Part shown: positions 23,963-33,801 of the stretch, in pieces | How positions within the stretch are numbered: position 1 is the first letter of the stretch | Layout: every line of letters starts with the position of its first letter | From: Alphaproteobacteria bacterium | GTDB lineage: Bacteria; Pseudomonadota; Alphaproteobacteria; RF32; CAG-239 | Length of the DNA stretch: 52,344 nt | Direction: 5' to 3' | NCBI GenBank assembly: GCA_017475525.1 | Contig: JAFVFH010000036.1 | Location: forward strand, 1 to 52,344 | The notes under the pieces: model-generated | What the model was told of the DNA's origin: nothing | The model's input: only the letters and a program-made list of their open reading frames with translations | The model's database searches: none | Position numbers and translations under genes: made by a program

Positions 23963-25204
23963 TTAAAGCTCATCTTGGAGCAGAAAGTCTTTTAAGCCGA
24001 GTGTTAATATCCCATTATCATCAAAATAAGGCATAATGTCATTTTTTGTGACGATAATTTTCTTAAAACTGTCGTTTATTTTTAAAAGTGGGCGCTTTTC
24101 TTGAATTTGTTTTTCTTCAGTCGGCATTGAAAGTGCAGATTGAATATAATATTTTTTATTACCCTTGTTTGCAATAAAATCCACTTCAATCTTTTTGGGT
24201 TTATAACTCTCATTTGTTTTTTCATAAATATCAAGCTCTCCGATATCTACTTCAAAACCTCTGATTTTTAGCTCATTATAAATCACATTTTCCATAAGAT
24301 GAGATTCTTCAAGTTGCCTGAAATGTAAGCGGGCATTTCTTAACCCGACATCCGTAAAGTAGTATTTTGACGGCGTATTGATATATTTTTTGCCTTTGAT
24401 GTCATAGCGCAAAACTTTATCTAAGATAAATGAATCTTCCAGATAATTAAGATATGTTTTAATCGTTGGAGCTGAAATATCGGAATGTTTGAGAGTTTGA
24501 AATGTGTCTGAGAGCTTTTGCGGATTAATCAGACACCCGACGCATGAAGCAATGATATCTGTCAATTCGCTTAATTCTTGATTGTTTTTAATATTGTTTC
24601 GTTCTTCAATGTCCTTAAAATATGTTTCTAAAAACAAATCTTTCAGATATTTCACTTTTTCATCATCTGTGTTTTGGAGCACGGCAAGAGGCATTCCTCC
24701 GAAAGTATAATACTGACGCCACGCGTCTTCAAAATGATCGCCGAAAGCATCAAAAAATTCTTTAAAACTTAAAGGGAAAACTCTAATTTCGTCACCGCGT
24801 CCGCGAAATTCTGTGACAACATCGGTTGATAAAAATTTTGAATTAGAACCTGTCACATACACGTCTAAATTTTTAATGTGTAAAAAGCCATTTAAAACAT
24901 CTTCAAAATTGCCCATCATTTGCACTTCATCAAGCAAAAGATAGTGCATTTTTTCATCTTTAATGGAAGCTTTAACATATTGATAACAATTATCCGGATT
25001 GCGATATTCACGCTTTGCATAATCATCTAAGGCAAGGTGTATAATATGGTCTTTTTTAACACCGCTGCCCAAAAGGTGTTTTTGGAACAATTCGCTCAGA
25101 AGATATGATTTTCCTGACCGCCGAATACCGCTGATGATTTTAATAAGCCCGTTGTGTTTGTGCGAAATAATTTGATTCAAATATCTGTCTCTTGCAATTT
25201 TCAT
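23963..25204 (-). CDS. AAA-family ATPase with DUF4143-type C-terminal domain
   Basis: Walker A GIRRSGKS. Walker B-like LLLDEVQ. 413 aa overall, matching the AAA_14/DUF4143 architecture as recalled. Confidence 0.7.
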   Translation of the reverse strand: MKIARDRYLNQIISHKHNGLIKIISGIRRSGKSYLLSELFQKHLLGSGVKKDHIIHLALDDYAKREYRNPDNCYQYVKASIKDEKMHYLLLDEVQMMGNFEDVLNGFLHIKNLDVYVTGSNSKFLSTDVVTEFRGRGDEIRVFPLSFKEFFDAFGDHFEDAWRQYYTFGGMPLAVLQNTDDEKVKYLKDLFLETYFKDIEERNNIKNNQELSELTDIIASCVGCLINPQKLSDTFQTLKHSDISAPTIKTYLNYLEDSFILDKVLRYDIKGKKYINTPSKYYFTDVGLRNARLHFRQLEESHLMENVIYNELKIRGFEVDIGELDIYEKTNESYKPKKIEVDFIANKGNKKYYIQSALSMPTEEKQIQEKRPLLKINDSFKKIIVTKNDIMPYFDDNGILTLGLKDFLLQDEL

Positions 25205-25212
25205 CTTGTCCT

Positions 25213-25254
25213 CATTTTAGAAAATATATAATATCTCACTTTTTCTAAAATAGA
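25213..25254. repeat. 42-bp repeat R1 containing a 10-bp inverted repeat (TTTTAGAAAA..TTTTCTAAAA)
   Basis: About 35 of 41 positions match R2 (25286..25327). Abuts the RBS of the ATPase gene. Confidence 0.75.
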
Positions 25255-25285
25255 AATAACATAAAAGATGTATATTGTCAAGGCA

Positions 25286-25327
25286 TATTTTAGAAAACAT
25301 CTGATATCTTACTTTTTCTAAAACAGA
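25286..25327. repeat. 42-bp repeat R2 (paralog of R1)
   Basis: Same palindromic arms as R1. A minus-strand TTGACA (25276-25281) lies between R1 and R2. Confidence 0.75.
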
Positions 25328-25331
25328 TGGC

Positions 25332-25484
25332 AAAAATCCTCATTTTTTATCAAAAAACTCTTGACAAAAATCGGGGGGGGGTAAAATGGAAGTAATAAAC
25401 AAATTAGTGTGGATGATTTATGTCAACTATTAGCCGTGTGCGATCGGATGATAAGATTTTTTCATACTTTATATTTTGTTTATT
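25332..25484 (+). repeat. Cassette 5' block, copy 2
   Basis: Paralog of 23305..23458. Contains the uORF MSTISRVRSDDKIFSYFIFCLLKPNV (25420..25500). Confidence 0.85.
25361..25387 (+). promoter_or_regulatory. Sigma70-like promoter with a G9 homopolymer in the spacer
   Basis: TTGACA(25361-25366), a 15-nt spacer containing G9 (25373-25381), then TAAAAT(25382-25387). Copy 1 has a 16-nt spacer with the interrupted sequence GAAGGGAGGG. Confidence 0.6.
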
Positions 25485-25517
25485 AAAACCGAATGTTTAA
25501 CAATTAAAATAGAAGTT

Positions 25518-25706
25518 ATGAAAGTTATCTTTGTAATTCTCAGTGTAGTATTTGTTCTCTTTTCCATTATGATGAGTATTCTTCTCATTAACTGGAAAAA
25601 GACATCTCATTCCATAAAAGAATGGGATTTCAGAGATTGGCTTTCCGTTTCACTTTGTGTGACGGAAATGCTGGTCTCGCTCATACTGTGCTACTTGCTG
25701 ATGTAG
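25518..25706 (+). CDS. Small two-TM membrane protein (cassette 2 cargo)
   Basis: 62 aa with two hydrophobic helices (VIFVILSVVFVLFSIMMSILLI; LSVSLCVTEMLVSLILCYLL). ATG 25518 aligns with the ATG of cassette 1. Confidence 0.5.
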   Translation: MKVIFVILSVVFVLFSIMMSILLINWKKTSHSIKEWDFRDWLSVSLCVTEMLVSLILCYLLM

Positions 25707-25785
25707 TACACGTAGCACACGAACCCCTCGGATTTTTGAAGTTTTTTACGCAAGTGATTGACTAAAAAATCCGAGGCTTTTTTTA
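25703..25785 (+). repeat. Cassette 3' block, copy 2 (conserved sequence plus terminator)
   Basis: GTAGTACACGTAGCACACGAACCCCTCGGATTTTTGAAGTTT. CCTCGGATTTTT pairs with AAAAAATCCGAGG, followed by T7. Confidence 0.8.
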
Positions 25786-25861
25786 TTTTAATTTCCCTCT
25801 TTATTTTTATTCAAAATAGATTATATTTGAAAAATCTGATAAAATAAGTTGGAGAAAGTTC

Positions 25862-26998
25862 ATGAAAAAAAGGTTACTTTTAAGCTGTTGCGCAATATTG
25901 TTTGCCTCAAATGCCAATGCGCGCAGTTTGTCAACGGACTACTCAATGTTCAAATATTGGCTCAACAAAAACTACGGTTTGGATTACGGCGTGGATATTT
26001 CGGTTATGCCGCAACGCGGTGCTCCATCTGGCAAATACAACGCTGTTCAAGCTTATATTTATCCGTATCTGACATGGACGAACTTCAAAAACGAGTATGG
26101 TACCGGAAGCCTTAATATGGCTTATTCCATCATCCGTTACGGAAATCATGATGCCTCGGATATCGGAAATCGTATGGGGGTTATCAGCGCCATCAATGAT
26201 TATGACGACAAAACAAACGAGTTCAACGAACTGTATTACAGTTATCAGCTCGGCGGTTCTTGGAACTGGCTCACGTTAGGTTTAGGTCAATTTCCGATTT
26301 ATAATTGGGACGGCTCGGATTATAACTCAAATCAGCAGGTCAATTTTATTAACTATGCTTTGTCGCAAAACCCATCTTCAACTTATTCAACTGCTGGCGT
26401 CGGCGGTTTTGCAACTGTTACGCCAAGTAATGAATGGAGCTTTACACTCGGTGCACAAGATGCCACAAATGTGGACGGCATCAGCGTTCAGCTCAATAAT
26501 TTTGGTGACGGCCATTTCACAACATTTGGGCAGGCCGAATGGACACCGACGAATAAATTGGGCGAAGCTCAAGTTTCCGTGTTGCTCTATAATCAACCGG
26601 GGGTGAAAGAACAACCGCAAACAACAAACGGTTGGTCTTTGAACTGGTCGCAAAACATCGGTGAAAAATGGAATATTTTTGCGCGTGTCAATGGTGTTTC
26701 GGGGCATATGGATACCGTTGAGCAGTCTTGGTCAGGAGGGGTGGTCTATTTAAATCCTTTGGGCAGAAACTCGCTTGATCAAATCGGTTTTGGTTATGCC
26801 TTAAATAAAATCAATGAAGAAGCTGTCGGAGAGCCTTTGGCACACGATACGGAGCATGTTTTTGAAGCATACTGGGCATGGGGTTTTTCAAAATGGATGA
26901 CCATAACACCGGATTTCCAATTTTATATCCACCCTGCGCTTAATCAAAAGTCAGACTATGGCACAGCTGTATCTTTAAGATTGACGTTGTTTTTATAG
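25862..26998 (+). CDS. Putative outer-membrane beta-barrel porin
   Basis: Signal peptide (ILFASNANA). Alternating aromatic/polar strand patterns. C-terminus ..SLRLTLFL. Family not resolved. Confidence 0.45.
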   Translation: MKKRLLLSCCAILFASNANARSLSTDYSMFKYWLNKNYGLDYGVDISVMPQRGAPSGKYNAVQAYIYPYLTWTNFKNEYGTGSLNMAYSIIRYGNHDASDIGNRMGVISAINDYDDKTNEFNELYYSYQLGGSWNWLTLGLGQFPIYNWDGSDYNSNQQVNFINYALSQNPSSTYSTAGVGGFATVTPSNEWSFTLGAQDATNVDGISVQLNNFGDGHFTTFGQAEWTPTNKLGEAQVSVLLYNQPGVKEQPQTTNGWSLNWSQNIGEKWNIFARVNGVSGHMDTVEQSWSGGVVYLNPLGRNSLDQIGFGYALNKINEEAVGEPLAHDTEHVFEAYWAWGFSKWMTITPDFQFYIHPALNQKSDYGTAVSLRLTLFL

Positions 26999-27976
26999 GC
27001 GTTGTAAACCGCCTTGTTGAAAAACTTCGGCAACGGCATAAGATTGGAAGTTTTCTTTTGGCGGAATGGCATGCAATAGAAAAGCTTGAGCTCTTAATTC
27101 TTCATCTTGAGCAATCATTTCTTCCAAAAGTTGAGGTTTTTCTTCGAGTTGGGTAATCAATTCGTCTTTATATTGGCTTGGAATTTTTGCAACAGCAATA
27201 ATTTTAGATAATTTGACGGAATAATCTTTTTCACAGTTCAAGCTCTTGACACAAATGTCTCCTTGTTCATCATACTTTTCAAAAGTGACGCAATGCATAC
27301 CGCTTGATGTGTTTTGAGAAGACTTCAACATTAAAATATCGCCTGGCTCTAATTGATTTTTAAAAACAGCTTGATAATCTTTGGTGCTTTGGTCAATATA
27401 ATTGCTGCCGAGTTTGGCTTTGTAATATGCGCAAAATGCCGGACAAGAAACATTAGGATGGCTGTCTAATTGAAGCTTTTTCGGTGTTGCCTCGGTGCTG
27501 ACCAAAATGTTTTTTAAAACCATATTCATAAGAGAATCGGTCACGCTTTCGTAATAAGCTGAAGTTGCGCCTGCAACACAATAATTTTCTTTGCCTGAAA
27601 GACCGCCTTTTTTATAAACTTGCGAAAACAATTTTCTGATGCGCGAAGCTTTTTTATTTTTAGGTGTTGCAAGAATAGCGTTTTGCAAATGATCGATGTT
27701 TTCTATCACTTGTCGGCTGAGTTCCGACGTTTTCTTTTCTGCAATTTTTTGAATGAGCCTTTGTTTTGCAATATCGTTTTTAGAAGCATTGGGAGCGGCA
27801 CTAAGCTCTACTAAATTGTGCTTATCACGCTCGGTTTCAAACCTTTGATTCGCTTGTGCGTTGGAAGAAATCAAAGCAAGCAAAACAGCACATTTGATCC
27901 AAAGTGTTTTTGAAAAAGTTTTTGGATTTTGTTTAGGTGAAGCATTTGCCGAGTTATGTAAATTTTTATTTTCCAT
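26993..27976 (-). CDS. Secreted hypothetical protein (possible papain-fold Cys/His pair)
   Basis: Signal peptide ending SSNAQA. Contains ENYCVAGATSAY and PGDILML..SSGMHCVTF. No family recognised. Confidence 0.5.
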   Translation of the reverse strand: MENKNLHNSANASPKQNPKTFSKTLWIKCAVLLALISSNAQANQRFETERDKHNLVELSAAPNASKNDIAKQRLIQKIAEKKTSELSRQVIENIDHLQNAILATPKNKKASRIRKLFSQVYKKGGLSGKENYCVAGATSAYYESVTDSLMNMVLKNILVSTEATPKKLQLDSHPNVSCPAFCAYYKAKLGSNYIDQSTKDYQAVFKNQLEPGDILMLKSSQNTSSGMHCVTFEKYDEQGDICVKSLNCEKDYSVKLSKIIAVAKIPSQYKDELITQLEEKPQLLEEMIAQDEELRAQAFLLHAIPPKENFQSYAVAEVFQQGGLQRL

Positions 27977-28118
27977 AAAATTATAATAACATACTTTTTA
28001 TACAAAAGCAAGTTTTTATCAAATAAATATTTGTTGTTTATTTTTTTGTTTTTTCTTTCGCAATATGCAAAAAAAATAGATAAAATCTCACAAAGATTAA
28101 TATGAATGGAACTTTCTG

Positions 28119-28655
28119 ATGAACTTAAAAAAGATATTGACTCTGATTGTTTTGTTTTTAAGCGCTTGCCATAGTGCGCCTAAAGAAGAAATTGTGCCGG
28201 CCATTGTGCCGTCGTCGCAAAAAGCCCCTCAAATCAAATATATTCGCCCCTCAAACATCATCGGCGAAATTGAGCCGATTTATATGCTCCCGATGAAATC
28301 GGCGTTTTTAGCACGCGTTGACACGGGCGCAACAACATCTTCAATTGATGTTCAAAATCTCAAACGCTTTGAGCGTGATGGAAAGCGCTGGGTGTCGTTT
28401 TTTGTGGTTAATGCCGCTTCGGGCGAAAAACATTTTTTTGAAAAACCGGTGATTAAAAGAGTGAAAATCAAACGCATTGAAGAAGAAGAACATCGTGTCA
28501 AGGTGATGATGGATGTCAAATTCGGTGGGCAGAAAATGAAAACGGAATTCACCCTTGCCGAGCGTGAGAGCTTCAGCTATCAAGGTCTTATCGGGCGCAA
28601 TATTTTGACCGGTCGATATATTGTCGACACATCTCTTACAAATACGCTGAAATAG
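28119..28655 (+). CDS. Retropepsin-like peptidase lipoprotein (PF05618 'ATP-dependent zinc protease' family, RimB-like)
   Basis: Lipobox LFLSAC. ARVDTGATTSS (DTGA). GLIGRNIL near the C-terminus. Confidence 0.7.
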   Translation: MNLKKILTLIVLFLSACHSAPKEEIVPAIVPSSQKAPQIKYIRPSNIIGEIEPIYMLPMKSAFLARVDTGATTSSIDVQNLKRFERDGKRWVSFFVVNAASGEKHFFEKPVIKRVKIKRIEEEEHRVKVMMDVKFGGQKMKTEFTLAERESFSYQGLIGRNILTGRYIVDTSLTNTLK

Positions 28656-28666
28656 GAAATATTAAT

Positions 28667-30199
28667 ATGAAAAAGCTTTTTACCGTCCGCAAAATTTTGT
28701 CGTTTTTTTTGGCTGTTTCGCTCATATTTACAGCCTATAGTGCATATTACAAAATTAAATTTTGGGGCTTTGATATAAAACCGAACAAAATAACGGAAGT
28801 TTGGACAATTGATGCCCATATTTCATTTAAGGCTTTGGGTAAAGATGTCAATGTATCGCTTGCAACGCCGAGTGTTTCTAAAGAGTTTAAGGTCTTAAAT
28901 GAAGATATTATAGCAAAAAATTATACTTTTTCAAAAGACGAAAAAACAGGACGCATTAAATTCCAAAGCTCTAAGCGCAAAGGAAGGCAAAATATATATT
29001 ATCGCCTGACGGTTTACGACAATGAAGACACAAGAGGGAAGGTTCGAGGAAAAGAGCCTGAAATGCCGGAGCCTCCTTTGTTCGATGAACAACAATTGCA
29101 AATGGCTGAAGAAATCTTACAATCAGCTTCCGTTTTTGAAGGAAGTTTACCTCAAAAGTTGATTTTGCTGTTTAATCAATCTCCGTTAGATGAAACGGTT
29201 GAGGCTTTTTTGCCTGTGAAAGCAAGCTTGCATGAACGTGCAAACATCATTATTGACTTGCTTTCTTTGCAAAAAATACCGGCAAGACTTGTGCGAGGGG
29301 TCAAATTAGTCGAAGGCAAAAAGGCATCGAATGCCGATTTGATGCTCGAAGCGTATGAGGGAAACCGTTGGCGTTTGTATGACCTGCAAACAGCAAAAGA
29401 TGGTTTGCCGAAAAACTTTATTTTGTTTCAACGTGGCGGTGTCTCACTTTTGGATGTAGAAGGAGGAGAAAGATCAACAATCAAGTTCTCGGTCTTAAAA
29501 TCAGTCACTTCTTCGTTTGAAATGGCGGAACATCGTGCAGAGATGAGCTCAACGGCAAAATTATATAACTTCTCTATTTATAGGCTTCCTTTGTTAGAAC
29601 AAAATATTTTAAAATGGCTGATGGTTTTTCCGCTTGGAATTTTAGTTGTTGTTTTCATGCGCAATGTGGTCGGCGTTCCCACCATGGGCACATTTACGCC
29701 GATGCTTATTGCCATGTCGTTTGTTCAAACGGGGTTAAGTGCGGGTTTGGTTTGTTTTTCAATCATTTTATTTATCGGCATTGCTTTGAGAAGCTTGCTT
29801 TCAAAACTTAACTTGCTTTTGGTTCCGCGTATTTCATCGGTCGTGATTTTTGTGATTTTGATTATTCAAACGATGACGGTAATCGGCTATCATTTTGAGC
29901 TTGAAATCAGCTCAGCTGCAGTCTTTTTCCCGATTATCATTACGGCATGGATTATTGAACGCCTTTCAATCATATGGGAAGAAGAAGGCGCTAAAAATGC
30001 CGTGAAAGAAATGTTTTGGACAACCGTTACCGCCTTGGCAACATATTTTGTGATTGCAAGTGAAACAATCCGCCATTTCATGTTTGCGTTTAACGAGGTA
30101 AATTTGGTCATTTTATTTGTCGTTATGTTGCTTGGCACATATACGGGATATCGCCTGACCGAGCTTAAGCGCTTTTATCCTTTAGTGAAAGAAAAATAG
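28667..30199 (+). CDS. Inactive-transglutaminase-like domain fused to a 7TM module
   Basis: N-terminal TM, a ~300-aa extracytoplasmic region, then a C-terminal cluster of ~7 TM helices. 11 nt after the previous gene and abuts the next gene (TAG ATG). Confidence 0.65.
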   Translation: MKKLFTVRKILSFFLAVSLIFTAYSAYYKIKFWGFDIKPNKITEVWTIDAHISFKALGKDVNVSLATPSVSKEFKVLNEDIIAKNYTFSKDEKTGRIKFQSSKRKGRQNIYYRLTVYDNEDTRGKVRGKEPEMPEPPLFDEQQLQMAEEILQSASVFEGSLPQKLILLFNQSPLDETVEAFLPVKASLHERANIIIDLLSLQKIPARLVRGVKLVEGKKASNADLMLEAYEGNRWRLYDLQTAKDGLPKNFILFQRGGVSLLDVEGGERSTIKFSVLKSVTSSFEMAEHRAEMSSTAKLYNFSIYRLPLLEQNILKWLMVFPLGILVVVFMRNVVGVPTMGTFTPMLIAMSFVQTGLSAGLVCFSIILFIGIALRSLLSKLNLLLVPRISSVVIFVILIIQTMTVIGYHFELEISSAAVFFPIIITAWIIERLSIIWEEEGAKNAVKEMFWTTVTALATYFVIASETIRHFMFAFNEVNLVILFVVMLLGTYTGYRLTELKRFYPLVKEK

Positions 30200-31144
30200 A
30201 TGTTTCATCCTCTTAAAATAGCAAAAAAATTGAAAGCATGCGGCATTTTGGGGATGAATGCGCGAAATTACAGTGTGATTTCGGCCTTAAATAAAAGGAG
30301 CCTCTATCCGCTTTTCGATGATAAGGTGCAAACCAAGGAACTGGCCGTAAAAGCCGGCATTAATACCACAAAAAAAATCGGTTTAATAGAATATCAGCAC
30401 CAAGTCAAAAATTTTCGAAATATGGTTCAAGGTTTCTCGGAATTTGTTATTAAACCGGCTCATGGCAGCGGGGGCAAAGGTGTTTTAGTTATCAAAAAGT
30501 GGGATGATAATTGCTTTACGACTGCTTCCGAAAAGCATTTAACGTATACGGAAGTTTATCAACACATTTCAAATATTTTAAGCGGCTTATACAGTTTGGG
30601 CGGGCAGTATGATGTGGCGCTTATTGAAGAAATGGTCCACTTTAGCAATGCATTTGAGCGTTTCAGCTATCAGGGCGTGCCGGATGTCAGACTGATTGTC
30701 TATAAAGGCTATCCGGCAATGGCGATGATGCGTTTGGCAACCTCAGAATCAGGCGGGCGCGCCAATTTGCACCAAGGAGCAGTCGGTGTCGGGCTTGATG
30801 TTAAAACAGGTTCAACACTATGCGCAGTCCAACACAACAAGCCGATAGAATTTCACCCAGATACGAAGGCAGATTTAAAAACACTCAAAGTACCCTTTTG
30901 GAAAGAACATTTATTGATCGCCTCAAAAGCCTATGAAATGACAGGGCTCGGCTATTTGGGAGCAGATATTGTTTTAGATAAAGATAAGGGGCCGATGATG
31001 TTGGAGCTCAATGCACGACCGGGGCTTGCAATTCAGATAGCCAACGCGTCCGGTTTGAAAAAAGCCATTAAAAATATTGATAAGAACTATCCAAAAAATT
31101 TATCGGCTGAGGAAAGGGTTGATTTTATTTTAAGCAAAACTTAA
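30200..31144 (+). CDS. Alpha-L-glutamate ligase-like ATP-grasp protein (RimK-related)
   Basis: GILGMNARN, FVIKPAHGSGGKGV, and MRLATSESGGRANLHQGAVGVG..LGADIVLD..GPMMLELNARPGL. Confidence 0.75.
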   Translation: MFHPLKIAKKLKACGILGMNARNYSVISALNKRSLYPLFDDKVQTKELAVKAGINTTKKIGLIEYQHQVKNFRNMVQGFSEFVIKPAHGSGGKGVLVIKKWDDNCFTTASEKHLTYTEVYQHISNILSGLYSLGGQYDVALIEEMVHFSNAFERFSYQGVPDVRLIVYKGYPAMAMMRLATSESGGRANLHQGAVGVGLDVKTGSTLCAVQHNKPIEFHPDTKADLKTLKVPFWKEHLLIASKAYEMTGLGYLGADIVLDKDKGPMMLELNARPGLAIQIANASGLKKAIKNIDKNYPKNLSAEERVDFILSKT

Positions 31145-31183: not shown

Positions 31184-31789
31184 ATGTCGGAACTCTTAAA
31201 AAAGTCAGAAACAAAAAATTTGGGCAAAAGTGAAACAAAAAACATCGCTTCAAATGAGGCTAAAAAGCTTTCAATGAGCGATACTCGAGCCAAAAAAATC
31301 AAGCATTCTTATCATGTCAAGGATCCGGAAAATTCCCTTGTCTTGAAATTAAAAGACGGAGACGTCGTTATTGAGATGTTTGAAGATGTTGCACCCTCAC
31401 ATGTCAAACGCATTAAGGAACTCGTTCGCCAAGGTTTTTATAACGGCCTCAAATTTCATCGTGTGATTGAGGGTTTTATGGCACAAACGGGCTGTCCTTT
31501 AGGCACCGGCACGGGCGGATCGGGCAAAAAACTCAAGGCAGAGTTTAATCAAAAAGAACATAAGCGCGGTACGGTTTCTATGGCAAGAGCAATGAATCCT
31601 GATTCGGCAGACAGCCAATTTTTTATTTGTTTTGCTGATGCGCCATGGCTTAACGGACAATATACCGTTTGGGGTGAAGTAACCGATGGCATGGAATATG
31701 TTGACAACATCAAAAAGGGTGAGGGCTATAACGGAATGGTCGATGATCCTGATATCATTGTCAGCATGAATGTGATAGCGGATTTGTAA
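31184..31789 (+). CDS. Peptidyl-prolyl cis-trans isomerase (cyclophilin type) with ~45-aa Lys-rich N-terminal extension
   Basis: FHRVIEGFMAQTGCPLGTGTGGSG and SQFFICF. The N-terminus contains the duplicated KSETKN. Confidence 0.85.
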   Translation: MSELLKKSETKNLGKSETKNIASNEAKKLSMSDTRAKKIKHSYHVKDPENSLVLKLKDGDVVIEMFEDVAPSHVKRIKELVRQGFYNGLKFHRVIEGFMAQTGCPLGTGTGGSGKKLKAEFNQKEHKRGTVSMARAMNPDSADSQFFICFADAPWLNGQYTVWGEVTDGMEYVDNIKKGEGYNGMVDDPDIIVSMNVIADL

Positions 31790-31807: not shown

Positions 31808-31841
31808 AAAAAAAGAGGTTCTTAAAAAGAACCTCTTTTTT
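31808..31841. terminator. Bidirectional terminator between convergent genes
   Basis: A-run, AGAGGTTCTT-aaa-AAGAACCTCT, T-run. Confidence 0.8.
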
Positions 31842-31856
31842 ATTCATCAACGAAGA

Positions 31857-33701
31857 TTATTGACATTTGATACACGTCTCACCGCAACCATTCTTTTTTG
31901 TTGCAATGACGACTTGTCCTTGAGGGCATGTATCGCCGACAAAGAATTTCTCATCATAAGTATCGCAAGTCTTAGCACAGCAAGCCGTTTTATCAGCATT
32001 CATCACATAATGTATGCCTTGCTTCATGCCGGTATCTAACCTGTTATCATCATAACAGTTGAGCAGTTTCGAGTTTGTTACCCCGGCACTGGTGCATGTG
32101 CTGCAATTTCCCCAATCCGGACATTGATCTCCGGGGATATTATAATCCGAACAATTCTTCGGCAGACACTGATTGGTATCATCAGATAGTTCATATCCTT
32201 CTTCACATTTTGTAATTTCATAAAACAACTTGCCGCAAATTTTGCGCTCATTTGAAGAAGCAACATGTTCCGGCAATTGCTCAAGATATTGCGTTGCAAC
32301 AATCTTGCATTCTTTATACTTACCGTTGCAACCCAAGCCGATAAATTCAGAATCACTTTGGTTGTCTGTTTCCGAAGTAGACCATTTATACACGGCATCG
32401 TTTTCATCATATGGACATTGACACAAGCCGCACCACTGTCCGCCACTCTTGAAACCTTCCGGCTCAGGATCAAAATTCCAACCTGTGCCGGCATTGATTT
32501 TTTCTTCACAGTCATCTTTGGATTGATACGCCAGACTGTAATACTTGCCGTCATGTGCGGCAGGGCAGGCAATGGGGTTACAAGCTGTTCCGGCAGCATT
32601 TTTCTGATACCCTTCAAGGGCATTACATTCCCACCCCCACTTGAATTGGCAGGTCACCTCTTGATTATCTTGGCAGCCCTTTCCGCTTCCCATCAAAGCC
32701 ACGGCGCCTTCAGGAACACGAACATCAGTCGGGCAGGCGGATAAACAAGTTTTGTAGTGCTTGCCGTCGCAGGCAACTGTTTCAAACTTGCGATATTCGC
32801 CATTTTCACGCGGCAGAGGATTTTTGTTTCCGTCATACTCATAGTTATCAGGCATCAAATGTTTATATTCTTCCGGTACATTGCATTGACATTCATAGCA
32901 TTGCTTGCCTCCGGTGTTTGTTTTAGCCACTTTTGACCAGCCTTTGGCGGCATCTGTCGAGCATTCCAAGGCATCATCTGATTCATACTGTCCTTCAGGA
33001 CACCCGAGTTCAACGCAACTGGTTCCTTCTTCCTTGAAACCGTTCTTGCATTCCCAGTTGACAATCACTTTCTTTGTTCCGCCACAACTGCAAGTCACAT
33101 TTTCTGTAATAGGGGTTGCATTTTCCGGCACCTCATATTTGGCAATACAGCTTGTTTCTTTGCAACCGGTCACATCTAAACAGCGAACTTTGTTCGGGTT
33201 TGACGGGCACGGGAGATATGTATTGCATTCGGTAATGGAGTTTGTGTATCCGAGCTCGGCGCAAATACTCTTATCATTTTTTAAGGTGTCAACAACACCA
33301 CCGCAACCTTCAGGATTGATAAACCCCGGACCGCATTGGCATTTAAAGCAGACGATATCAGCGTTCGAAACTTTTTCACATTCCATATCAGCCGGCTTCG
33401 TTTCAAACAATCCGAAATCTTTACAAGACCATAGCGTGCAACTTAATTTTGTTTTGTCGAACGGACACGCAATACCGCCGTAGGGGCAAGAAGTTGCGGT
33501 ATATCCTAGAGTCGCACATTGTAAGTTGTTCTGAACACAGAGCTCAGATTTATAAGATGTAATCTGTTGTGAATTGGGCGACAAATATGAAAGGGCAGAA
33601 GGCGCATAGCGTGCCAAAATACCCGACACACCGGAACCATCATTTGTTGTTTGTGCTTGTGCCGAAAAAGCAAAGAGCATTAAAAATAAAACCAGTTTCA
33701 T
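31857..33701 (-). CDS. Large secreted cysteine-rich protein (~70 Cys in 614 aa), no recognised family
   Basis: GGGGGA RBS before ATG 33701. Signal peptide MKLVLFLMLFAFSAQA. Recurring C-x2-C-Q-C punctuation (FKCQC, YECQC, GLCQC, IKCQ) and C.(T/E)LGYT motifs. Confidence 0.7.
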   Translation of the reverse strand: MKLVLFLMLFAFSAQAQTTNDGSGVSGILARYAPSALSYLSPNSQQITSYKSELCVQNNLQCATLGYTATSCPYGGIACPFDKTKLSCTLWSCKDFGLFETKPADMECEKVSNADIVCFKCQCGPGFINPEGCGGVVDTLKNDKSICAELGYTNSITECNTYLPCPSNPNKVRCLDVTGCKETSCIAKYEVPENATPITENVTCSCGGTKKVIVNWECKNGFKEEGTSCVELGCPEGQYESDDALECSTDAAKGWSKVAKTNTGGKQCYECQCNVPEEYKHLMPDNYEYDGNKNPLPRENGEYRKFETVACDGKHYKTCLSACPTDVRVPEGAVALMGSGKGCQDNQEVTCQFKWGWECNALEGYQKNAAGTACNPIACPAAHDGKYYSLAYQSKDDCEEKINAGTGWNFDPEPEGFKSGGQWCGLCQCPYDENDAVYKWSTSETDNQSDSEFIGLGCNGKYKECKIVATQYLEQLPEHVASSNERKICGKLFYEITKCEEGYELSDDTNQCLPKNCSDYNIPGDQCPDWGNCSTCTSAGVTNSKLLNCYDDNRLDTGMKQGIHYVMNADKTACCAKTCDTYDEKFFVGDTCPQGQVVIATKKNGCGETCIKCQ

Positions 33702-33801
33702 GAGGCGTCCCCCTTCTTCAAAGATATCTGAAACAATAGTAACATAGTTTAACTTTTTTTTCAACTCAAAATAATATTTTTTCGAAAAACGTCACAAAAA
33801 A

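Follow-up and report, generated by a model that had tools for sequence, protein, structure and literature searches.

The rlo operon (retropepsin-like osmotic-stress-tolerance operon), rloABC, was named and genetically studied in Pseudomonas aeruginosa as PA14_41700-41730 / PA1766-1768 (Lormand et al., mBio 2025, PMC12239564). Here, we analyze a triad of genes that, judged from its sequence, is very probably an rloABC-type operon of an uncultured gut or rumen alphaproteobacterium. The triad lies at positions 28119-31144 of the ruminant-gut metagenome contig JAFVFH010000036.1 (assembly GCA_017475525.1, GTDB lineage Alphaproteobacteria; RF32; CAG-239), and the whole stretch of 52,344 nucleotides is called the window below. 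The three-gene association was reportedly first predicted by comparative genomics, by Iyer et al. in 2009.

In P. aeruginosa, the operon influences how cells tolerate osmotic stress, form biofilms, respond to beta-lactams and keep their shape. RloA and its two paralogues in this organism are retropepsin-like aspartic peptidases with signal peptides, and crystal structures of RloA-type retropepsins have been solved (9G58 and 9G59). In vitro, RloA cuts reporters bearing 8 or 10 consecutive Glu residues and leaves those with 6 or fewer uncut, and neither cleavage nor complementation survives the R114A or R137A substitution. A mutant lacking all three rloA genes (rloA1-3) does not grow in salt-free medium and dies under hypo-osmotic stress, with further defects in biofilms, cell shape and tolerance of beta-lactams; deletion of rloB or rloC rescues it. 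The RloC of P. aeruginosa, an ATP-grasp protein of the cytoplasm, shares 24% identity with RimK. According to the authors, the physiological substrate of RloA is unknown and probably not genome-encoded, and the activities of RloB and RloC are still to be determined; they found no genome-encoded periplasmic poly-Glu protein (all from PMC12239564). The initial annotation of the window had described the association as predicted, with substrate and product undetermined. The first half of this statement is outdated since the characterization of rloABC in 2025, whereas the second half stands in the searchable literature, where we found no later publication defining the Rlo substrate. The same annotation had named a published biochemical function as one finding that would overturn it; such a function now exists for RloA in vitro, but not for RloB, RloC or the in vivo substrate and product.

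Another related system is RimABK, in which RimB trims poly-Glu and also stimulates its synthesis by RimK (PMC11957791, PMC10092738); the RimB/RimK pair can be taken as a model for making and cutting one polymer. The window shares with this system the pairing of an ATP-grasp ligase with a PF05618 retropepsin, which in the Rim case cuts poly-Glu. Unlike the window protease, which is predicted to be exported, both Rim proteins are cytoplasmic and in mutual contact; a membrane partner such as RloB would therefore be needed in the window. Furthermore, the window RloC lacks the N-terminal domain of RimK, and no rimA-like EAL gene is present.

The three window genes follow each other on the forward strand. 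rloA (28119-28655, +) encodes a retropepsin-like aspartic endopeptidase of 178 aa, a predicted exported lipoprotein of family PF05618; rloB (28667-30199, +) encodes an inner-membrane protein of 510 aa with the PF14400 and PF14402 domains; and rloC (30200-31144, +) encodes a cytoplasmic ATP-grasp protein of 314 aa of the alpha-L-glutamate-ligase-like type (TIGR02291/PF14397). Reading the letters, we found an 11-nt spacer between rloA and rloB (28656-28666) and a gap of 0 nt between rloB and rloC, the rloB stop codon TAG abutting the rloC ATG, in agreement with the tight packing reported by the initial annotation. Adjacent, co-directional and in the order A-B-C, the genes have the operon arrangement given in PMC12239564, and in families, order and strand they agree with those of P. 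aeruginosa. We base the identification on the family hidden Markov models (HMMs), on the NCBIfam RloB model, which aligns end to end with the window RloB (E 1.5e-89), on the matches of RloA to 9g58 and 9g59, and on the conserved, coupled A-B-C order. All features of the rloABC architecture that can be tested by sequence are found in the triad. The families proposed earlier for the three ORFs (PF05618, PF14400/PF14402 and TIGR02291) were all recovered in the HMM searches, and our predictions agree with the topology proposed earlier, in which the ligase is cytoplasmic, the middle protein forms a membrane module and the peptidase is exported.

Taken as a whole, the explanation that we prefer is an rloABC-type operon with a make, export-or-present, and cut mechanism, to which we assign a probability of roughly 60%. 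The window operon differs from that of P. aeruginosa in several ways. Its host is a gut alphaproteobacterium, whereas PMC12239564 stresses Gammaproteobacteria; its RloA clearly has the form of a lipoprotein, whereas that paper says only 'signal peptide'; and a cyclophilin gene is attached downstream in the window's clade. What is new here is modest and adds no new principle. It consists of the lineage of the host, an RloA that is clearly a lipoprotein, a cyclophilin neighbor across the clade, and the comparative conservation of residues and surfaces.

To follow the operon across genomes, we used two conserved RloB peptide patterns, which gave 414 confirmed relatives in a one-genome-per-species collection. 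The best 80 of the 414 all come from the same clade of uncultured gut/rumen Alphaproteobacteria, the closest genomes bearing labels such as 'Rhodospirillaceae bacterium RUG803', 'Azospirillum sp. 51_20', 'Acetobacter sp. CAG:977' and 'Candidatus Scatocola'. Gene order was counted at 81 distinct related loci, with the loci that have enough flanking sequence as denominators. A RloA homologue lies directly upstream of RloB at 79/79 loci and a RloC homologue directly downstream at 76/76; the median gap is 21 nt between A and B, and 1 nt (range -8 to 16) between B and C. This arrangement is not a matter of chance. Aeromonas caviae has this gene order too (identity to the window proteins: RloA 33%, RloB 35%, RloC 54%), as does a 54-kb plasmid of Legionella adelaidensis (RloA 34%, RloB 29%, RloC 49%), on which the rlo genes overlap by 4 nt. 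Gauged from these two loci, the window sequences are distant from gammaproteobacterial rloABC, the pairwise comparison with Pseudomonas being confined to the RloA structures. The conserved neighborhood that the initial annotation had named as a check on its reading is thus borne out within the clade and beyond it. The operon is fixed in a large clade of uncultured gut/rumen Alphaproteobacteria and hence is not confined to Gammaproteobacteria.

The RloB family itself is well populated and uniform in its architecture. A library of 1.84 billion proteins, clustered at 50% identity, holds 1713 RloB relatives at E<=1e-3 and 427 at <=1e-30, and nearly all of them are 500-530 aa long. An RloB identical to that of the window occurs in a metagenome assembly contig of ENA and in a Logan assembly, and read-level searches matched the window DNA in gut metagenomes, including those of goat, bovine and sheep. 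Within the 52-kb window, we saw no Rlo or Rim paralogue elsewhere, including no second RloA.

Two records of these relatives deserve comment. The Legionella genes are annotated as 'RimK/LysX family protein', 'inactive transglutaminase family protein' and 'alpha-L-glutamate ligase-like protein'. The RloA-type ORF of that plasmid (4414-4872) reaches 18 codons further upstream (MRLVLFFIFSWTFLCGST...), and the annotated start drops a possible signal peptide; both the name 'RimK/LysX family protein' and the start of this gene are likely mis-annotated. The Aeromonas caviae record (NZ_AP026896.1, 4.94 Mb) is chromosome-sized, is filed as a plasmid, and has 18 annotated features; its rloABC genes appear unannotated since the record is nearly without a gene table. 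For annotation in general, the names rloA-like, rloB-like and rloC-like are preferable to 'ATP-dependent zinc protease', 'UUP1 family membrane protein' and 'hypothetical protein'.

The window RloA matches PF05618 with an E-value of 2.6e-27, and its best NCBIfam matches are RloA3, RloA2, RimB and RloA1, each with a score under the narrow cut-off of the model. Its N-terminus, MNLKKILTLIVLFLSAC, forms a hydrophobic stretch ending in the lipobox L14-S15-A16-C17. The putative lipoprotein signal peptide thus extends over 28119-28169 (+), with the Cys17 codon at 28167-28169. Cys17 is invariant in 79/79 RloA relatives, none of which has Asp at position +2. The predicted export signal distinguishes RloA from the cytoplasmic RimB. 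In Aeromonas, RloA likewise carries a lipobox (LGGC), behind which comes a long linker; a lipid-anchored RloA is therefore not peculiar to this alphaproteobacterial clade.

The catalytic motif D68-T-G-A (28320-28331, +) belongs to a retropepsin fold and aligns with the D48 motif of 9g58. It is invariant in all 79 relatives. Both motifs that the initial annotation had seen in the first ORF, LSAC and DTGA, are present in the window protein. Apart from the RloA-type structures 9g58 and 9g59, the window RloA aligns with the Legionella structure 2pma. With 20 added to the chain numbering of 9g58, each of the nine residues singled out in the paper (K46, D48, R92, K95, K97, R99, K109, R114 and R137) is recovered, which makes the mapping of 9g58 residues onto the window secure. 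By this mapping, Pseudomonas K46 corresponds to R66 of the window, D48 to D68, R92 to K113, R114 to R126, and R137 to R149. The three basic channel residues for poly-Glu cleavage (K46, R114 and R137 in P. aeruginosa) are therefore kept as R66, R126 and R149; these three and D68 are invariant in 79/79 relatives, and 71 of the 79 have Arg or Lys at position 113. The invariance of the poly-Glu-cleavage residues at this evolutionary distance argues that the substrate class, poly-anionic and probably a poly-Glu peptide, would be the same here as in Pseudomonas. The window RloA thus resembles its P. aeruginosa counterpart in predicted export, in the DTGA motif, and in the poly-Glu-coordinating residues.

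RloB gave matches above the cut-offs to PF14400 (residues 28-180, E 5.6e-26) and PF14402 (residues 260-506, E 1.5e-81). We modeled it with AlphaFold2 from 120 relatives (mean predicted local distance difference test, pLDDT, 83). The model places an N-terminal membrane helix at 7-33, a beta-rich domain at 42-117, an alpha/beta domain at 141-282, and a helical bundle at 283-508. The initial annotation had described a transglutaminase-like region followed by a seven-transmembrane (7TM) bundle, to which our analysis adds the N-terminal helix ahead of the periplasmic domain; the predicted membrane helices are therefore 1+7. From the hydrophobic segments and the positive-inside rule, we predict that the N-terminus is inside, that residues 34-315 are periplasmic, and that seven further helices lead to a C-terminus inside.

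Performing Foldseek searches against the PDB, we found that the periplasmic part of RloB matches 3isr (E 4e-8, about 280 columns), the sole significant family. This Cytophaga hutchinsonii protein is a transglutaminase-like 'putative cysteine protease'; unlike proteases of its type, RloB has no conserved Cys and is fused to a 7TM bundle. Among the 120 relatives, no Cys is invariant or nearly so, and the only Cys of the window protein, Cys363, lies inside a membrane helix. An active transglutaminase-like cysteine peptidase with a Cys-His-Asp triad is ruled out by this lack, and the periplasmic domain cannot be an active transglutaminase or protease. The Pfam matches, the modeled domain order, the 3isr fold and the missing Cys give RloB, in its predicted orientation, the architecture described for rloABC, that is, an inactive transglutaminase domain with a 7TM bundle, as in P. 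aeruginosa. The transmembrane (TM) bundle itself had no significant match to a solved structure, transporter or receptor in the Foldseek search of the PDB; matches to an RND pump and to PCAT1 were dismissed at probabilities of 0.02-0.06, and a PDB sequence search with RloB gave nothing useful.

Next, we compared which RloB residues are conserved from the clade to Aeromonas and Legionella. These are 5/8 positions of the predicted cytoplasmic loop 336-343, 6/10 of the predicted cytoplasmic loop 379-388, 5/16 of the last helix and 5/15 of the C-terminal tail, and 15/249 of the periplasmic positions 34-282. In the predicted topology, this pattern points to the cytoplasmic face of the bundle as the conserved working surface and to a likely site at which RloC or its product would engage.

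These properties of RloB bring in the main rival to our explanation, in which RloB would be a 7TM receptor. Its periplasmic pseudo-transglutaminase would bind a peptide derived from the envelope, RloC would glutamylate a cytoplasmic target as RimK does S6, and RloA would make or destroy the ligand. A TM bundle unlike any solved transporter slightly favors such a signaling role, a catalytically dead transglutaminase-like fold suits binding, and the conserved cytoplasmic loops could equally form a contact through which RloC is regulated. The epistasis seen in Pseudomonas is also compatible with this role, provided that unrestrained RloC activity is the harmful step. However, an operon that pairs a poly-Glu-type ligase with an RloA whose poly-anion channel is conserved finds a simpler explanation when the protease cuts what the ligase makes. 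The failure of Lormand et al. to find a genome-encoded periplasmic poly-Glu protein (PMC12239564) and the lack of the RimK N-terminal domain in RloC also speak against signaling, which we consider unlikely on balance.

RloC was assigned to TIGR02291 ('alpha-L-glutamate ligase-like protein') with 422 bits against a cut-off of 314, and to PF14397 with E 3.1e-90. This agrees with the initial annotation of the third ORF as a cytoplasmic ATP-grasp protein and with the TIGR02291-type RloC of P. aeruginosa. Over residues 88-267 of E. coli RimK (taken from NC_000913.3), the window RloC is 22% identical; the alignment begins at RimK residue 88, and nothing in RloC corresponds to the RimK N-terminal domain. 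RloC retains the ATP-grasp signatures K85 in VIKP, G89-S-G-G-K-G-V95, R187-A-N-L-H-Q-G193, and D256, E269 and N271. The last three align with RimK D248, E260 and N262, and we take them to be the metal ligands. All of these signatures are invariant in 85 clade members. Conservation across classes covers K85 with the neighboring P86 and A87, G89, G92, G94, A188-G193, D256, E269 and N271; R187, S90 and K93 fall below the threshold for it.

The AlphaFold2 model of RloC (pLDDT 85) has RimK structures as its best fold matches, namely 7qys, 5zct ('poly-alpha-L-glutamate peptides synthetase') and 4iwx, with E-values of about 1e-12. ArgX and LysX come after RimK, followed by cyanophycin synthetase and D-Ala-D-Ala ligases, and PsnB is also among the matches. 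A PDB sequence search with RloC gave nothing useful. Together, these data strongly support RloC as a RimK-related cytoplasmic ligase that looks catalytically competent. LysX and ArgX, ranking just behind RimK in fold, are ATP-grasp enzymes whose acceptor is the C-terminal Glu of LysW, a small carrier protein, to which they attach an amino acid; by analogy, RloC may extend the carboxyl end of a peptide. Unlike the LysX/ArgX-LysW systems, the window operon has no LysW-like carrier and no lysine or arginine biosynthesis genes near it, and the NCBIfam LysX score of RloC is far below the cut-off.

In place of the missing RimK domain, residues 1-50 of RloC (30200-30350) carry a motif, GILGMNxRN...N.R.LYPLxDDK..TK, that is kept from the clade to Aeromonas and Legionella. 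It is modeled at low confidence (pLDDT 58-74). From its conservation, we regard this motif as a candidate docking surface or interface with RloB, or a candidate substrate element. A single-residue strain difference falls inside its conserved YPL(V)DDK part: residue 39 (30314-30316) is Phe in the window and Val in L001, the public contig with the identical RloB, and Val is found in at least 90% of the relatives.

The presence of D-Ala-D-Ala ligases among the fold matches raises the question of whether the operon acts in cell-wall chemistry. RloC would then add an amino acid to peptidoglycan or to a lipid-linked precursor, RloB would flip or hold it, and RloA would trim it in the periplasm. The cell-shape and beta-lactam phenotypes of Pseudomonas, for which the authors discuss a link to peptidoglycan (PMC12239564), fit this idea, as does the excess of membrane vesicles that the literature describes for an rloB-type mutant of Shewanella vesiculosa. 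However, RimK, LysX and ArgX outrank the D-Ala-D-Ala ligases and TIGR02291 is RimK-related; RloA needs at least 8 consecutive Glu residues in vitro (PMC12239564), which no known peptidoglycan stem offers; and no mur or other cell-wall genes are linked to the operon in the window. We therefore hold this explanation to be distinctly improbable.

Still less probable, at the level of a very long shot, is that the triad performs S6 glutamylation of the RimB/RimK type, makes a secreted peptide as a RiPP (ribosomally synthesized and post-translationally modified peptide) pathway, or serves as a phage-defense module. The homology of RloA and RloC to RimB and RimK speaks for the first of these, and the known ATP-grasp enzymes of RiPP pathways, with PsnB among the RloC fold matches, for the second. 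Against them, RloC fails the RimK family models (TIGR00768, 54 bits against a cut-off of 143; PRK10446, 20 against 331) and lacks the RimK N-terminal domain, RloA has an export signal, and RloB has no counterpart in the rim system. Scanning both strands in and around the operon for ORFs of at least 20 aa, we found no plausible small precursor or acceptor and none with a C-terminal run of Glu. A search of RloA, RloB and RloC against PADLOC-DB returned 0 matches at E 1e-3.

We return to the make, export-or-present, and cut mechanism, which on its own we rate slightly below even odds. RloC, with ATP, would build an alpha-linked, Glu-rich peptide or a poly-Glu tail on a carrier. The poly-Glu-type role is suggested by the best folds, RimK poly-alpha-L-glutamate synthetase first and then LysX/ArgX, which extend the C-terminal Glu of a carrier. 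RloB would dock RloC at its cytoplasmic face and pass or present the product at the periplasmic face, where dimers of RloA would cut it. The balance of making and cutting would tune the envelope, giving rise to the osmotic-tolerance, cell-shape and cell-wall phenotypes; without RloA, the RloBC product would build up and harm the envelope. The rescue of the rloA1-3 mutant by deletion of rloB or rloC, and the argument of Lormand et al. that no gene encodes the substrate (PMC12239564), speak for this reading. A precedent for this logic exists in Gram-positive bacteria, where the membrane-associated PgsBCA/CapBCA synthetase exports an anionic Glu polymer that CapD or PgdS cuts or anchors outside the cytoplasm, with a role in stress protection. 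This precedent is also discussed in PMC12239564. The likeness is one of analogy only: the PgsBCA/CapBCA enzymes are unrelated (a MurD-like amide ligase making a gamma linkage), and none of our searches gave homology between them and the window proteins.

Several points weigh against this explanation. RloA scores below the cut-offs of NCBIfam RloA3 (87 against 210), RloA2 (64 against 250) and RloA1 (59 against 280), and RloB, with 301 bits, misses the cut-off of 900 of its own model. These are narrow 'exception' or equivalog models built on Pseudomonas proteins; since RloA and RloB fall below them, the window proteins are filed under the broader rloABC operon type and not as strict NCBIfam Rlo equivalogs. 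The cleavage data for RloA were obtained in vitro, with engineered substrates and with Pseudomonas proteins about 33% identical to the window RloA. The RloB topology is a prediction from hydrophobicity and modeled secondary structure, and because its TM bundle resembles no known transporter fold, export is an assumption. The operon has no visible acceptor peptide or small precursor ORF. The activity of RloC and RloB has been measured nowhere, and poly-Glu has been detected nowhere in a periplasm. Finally, the epistasis among rloA, rloB and rloC fits the receptor model equally well.

A bolder form of the same mechanism can be drawn, which we put forward as a rather doubtful proposal. RloC and RloB would together form a synthase-translocon, in which the ligase is docked on the conserved cytoplasmic loops of RloB and a non-ribosomal peptide of the poly-alpha-glutamate type is moved across the inner membrane of Gram-negative bacteria; lipid-anchored RloA would meter the product in the periplasm, and the cyclophilin would be a fourth, clade-specific component. 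If true, this would amount to a novel type of machine for exporting a peptide polymer, built on a TM fold that has no solved relative. The conservation points described above can guide mutagenesis and structural work in the model organism.

We then examined the transcription unit. A weak sigma-70-like promoter candidate (TTCGCA-18-TAAAAT, 28057-28086, +, matching 9/12 positions) lies 33 nt upstream of rloA; in the promoter and terminator scan of the region, the number of sites was no higher than in shuffled sequence. One sheep-gut metatranscriptome contained two 151-nt contigs, one of which (28633-28783) crosses the rloA/rloB junction. This is weakly consistent with co-transcription of rloA and rloB and cannot prove an operon.

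Following rloC after 39 nt is a gene for a cyclophilin-type peptidyl-prolyl isomerase (ppi, 31184-31789, +, 201 aa; PF00160, E 1.6e-43). Its product has a Lys/Ser/Glu-rich N-terminal extension of about 50 aa and no signal peptide. No terminator-like site was found between rloC and ppi, and the gene is probably co-transcribed with rloABC. A cyclophilin gene lies directly 3' of rloC in 67/74 distinct related loci, but the rlo loci of Aeromonas and Legionella have none; the linkage is confined to the alphaproteobacterial clade. Synteny in this clade is generally high, the porin, methyltransferase and response-regulator genes being kept too, so the linkage may reflect inherited gene order rather than function.

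A hairpin at 31809-31841, with a 15-bp stem and A/T-run flanks, stands between the convergent ppi and a gene for a Cys-rich protein. It folds at -20 kcal/mol (z -4.6), and 0/200 shuffles fold as well. The hairpin is likely a bidirectional terminator that closes the transcription unit; the terminator scan missed it because the T-run forms part of the stem.

The gene beyond this hairpin (31857-33764, -) encodes a secreted, very Cys-rich protein of 635 aa with no Pfam match. Its identity to relatives is 38-53% at loci whose flanking genes are 74-93% identical, which marks it as much faster evolving, and it may be surface or host-facing.

Upstream of the rlo genes, an OprB-family porin is encoded at 25862-26998 (+). 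In NCBIfam, it comes closest to the chlamydial porin AaxA (E 3.8e-83, 280 bits against a cut-off of 600), and many relatives keep it immediately upstream of their rlo genes, with 56-93% identity. The 3' end of this gene is overlapped by 6 nt by the 3' end of a gene at 26993-27976 (-), whose product of 327 aa has an N-terminal signal-like segment and no Pfam family, with sub-threshold matches to NlpC/P60 and Amidase_6 (E about 0.1). We considered this secreted protein as a fourth rlo component and rejected it, since the closest relative (L003/L006) lacks it and its identity elsewhere is only 27-47%. Further upstream, an AAA_14/DUF4143 ATPase gene (23963-25204, -) matches the PADLOC candidate defense family PDC-S01 (E 1e-114) and sits in the stretch of lowest GC in the window (24001-26000, GC 0.33).

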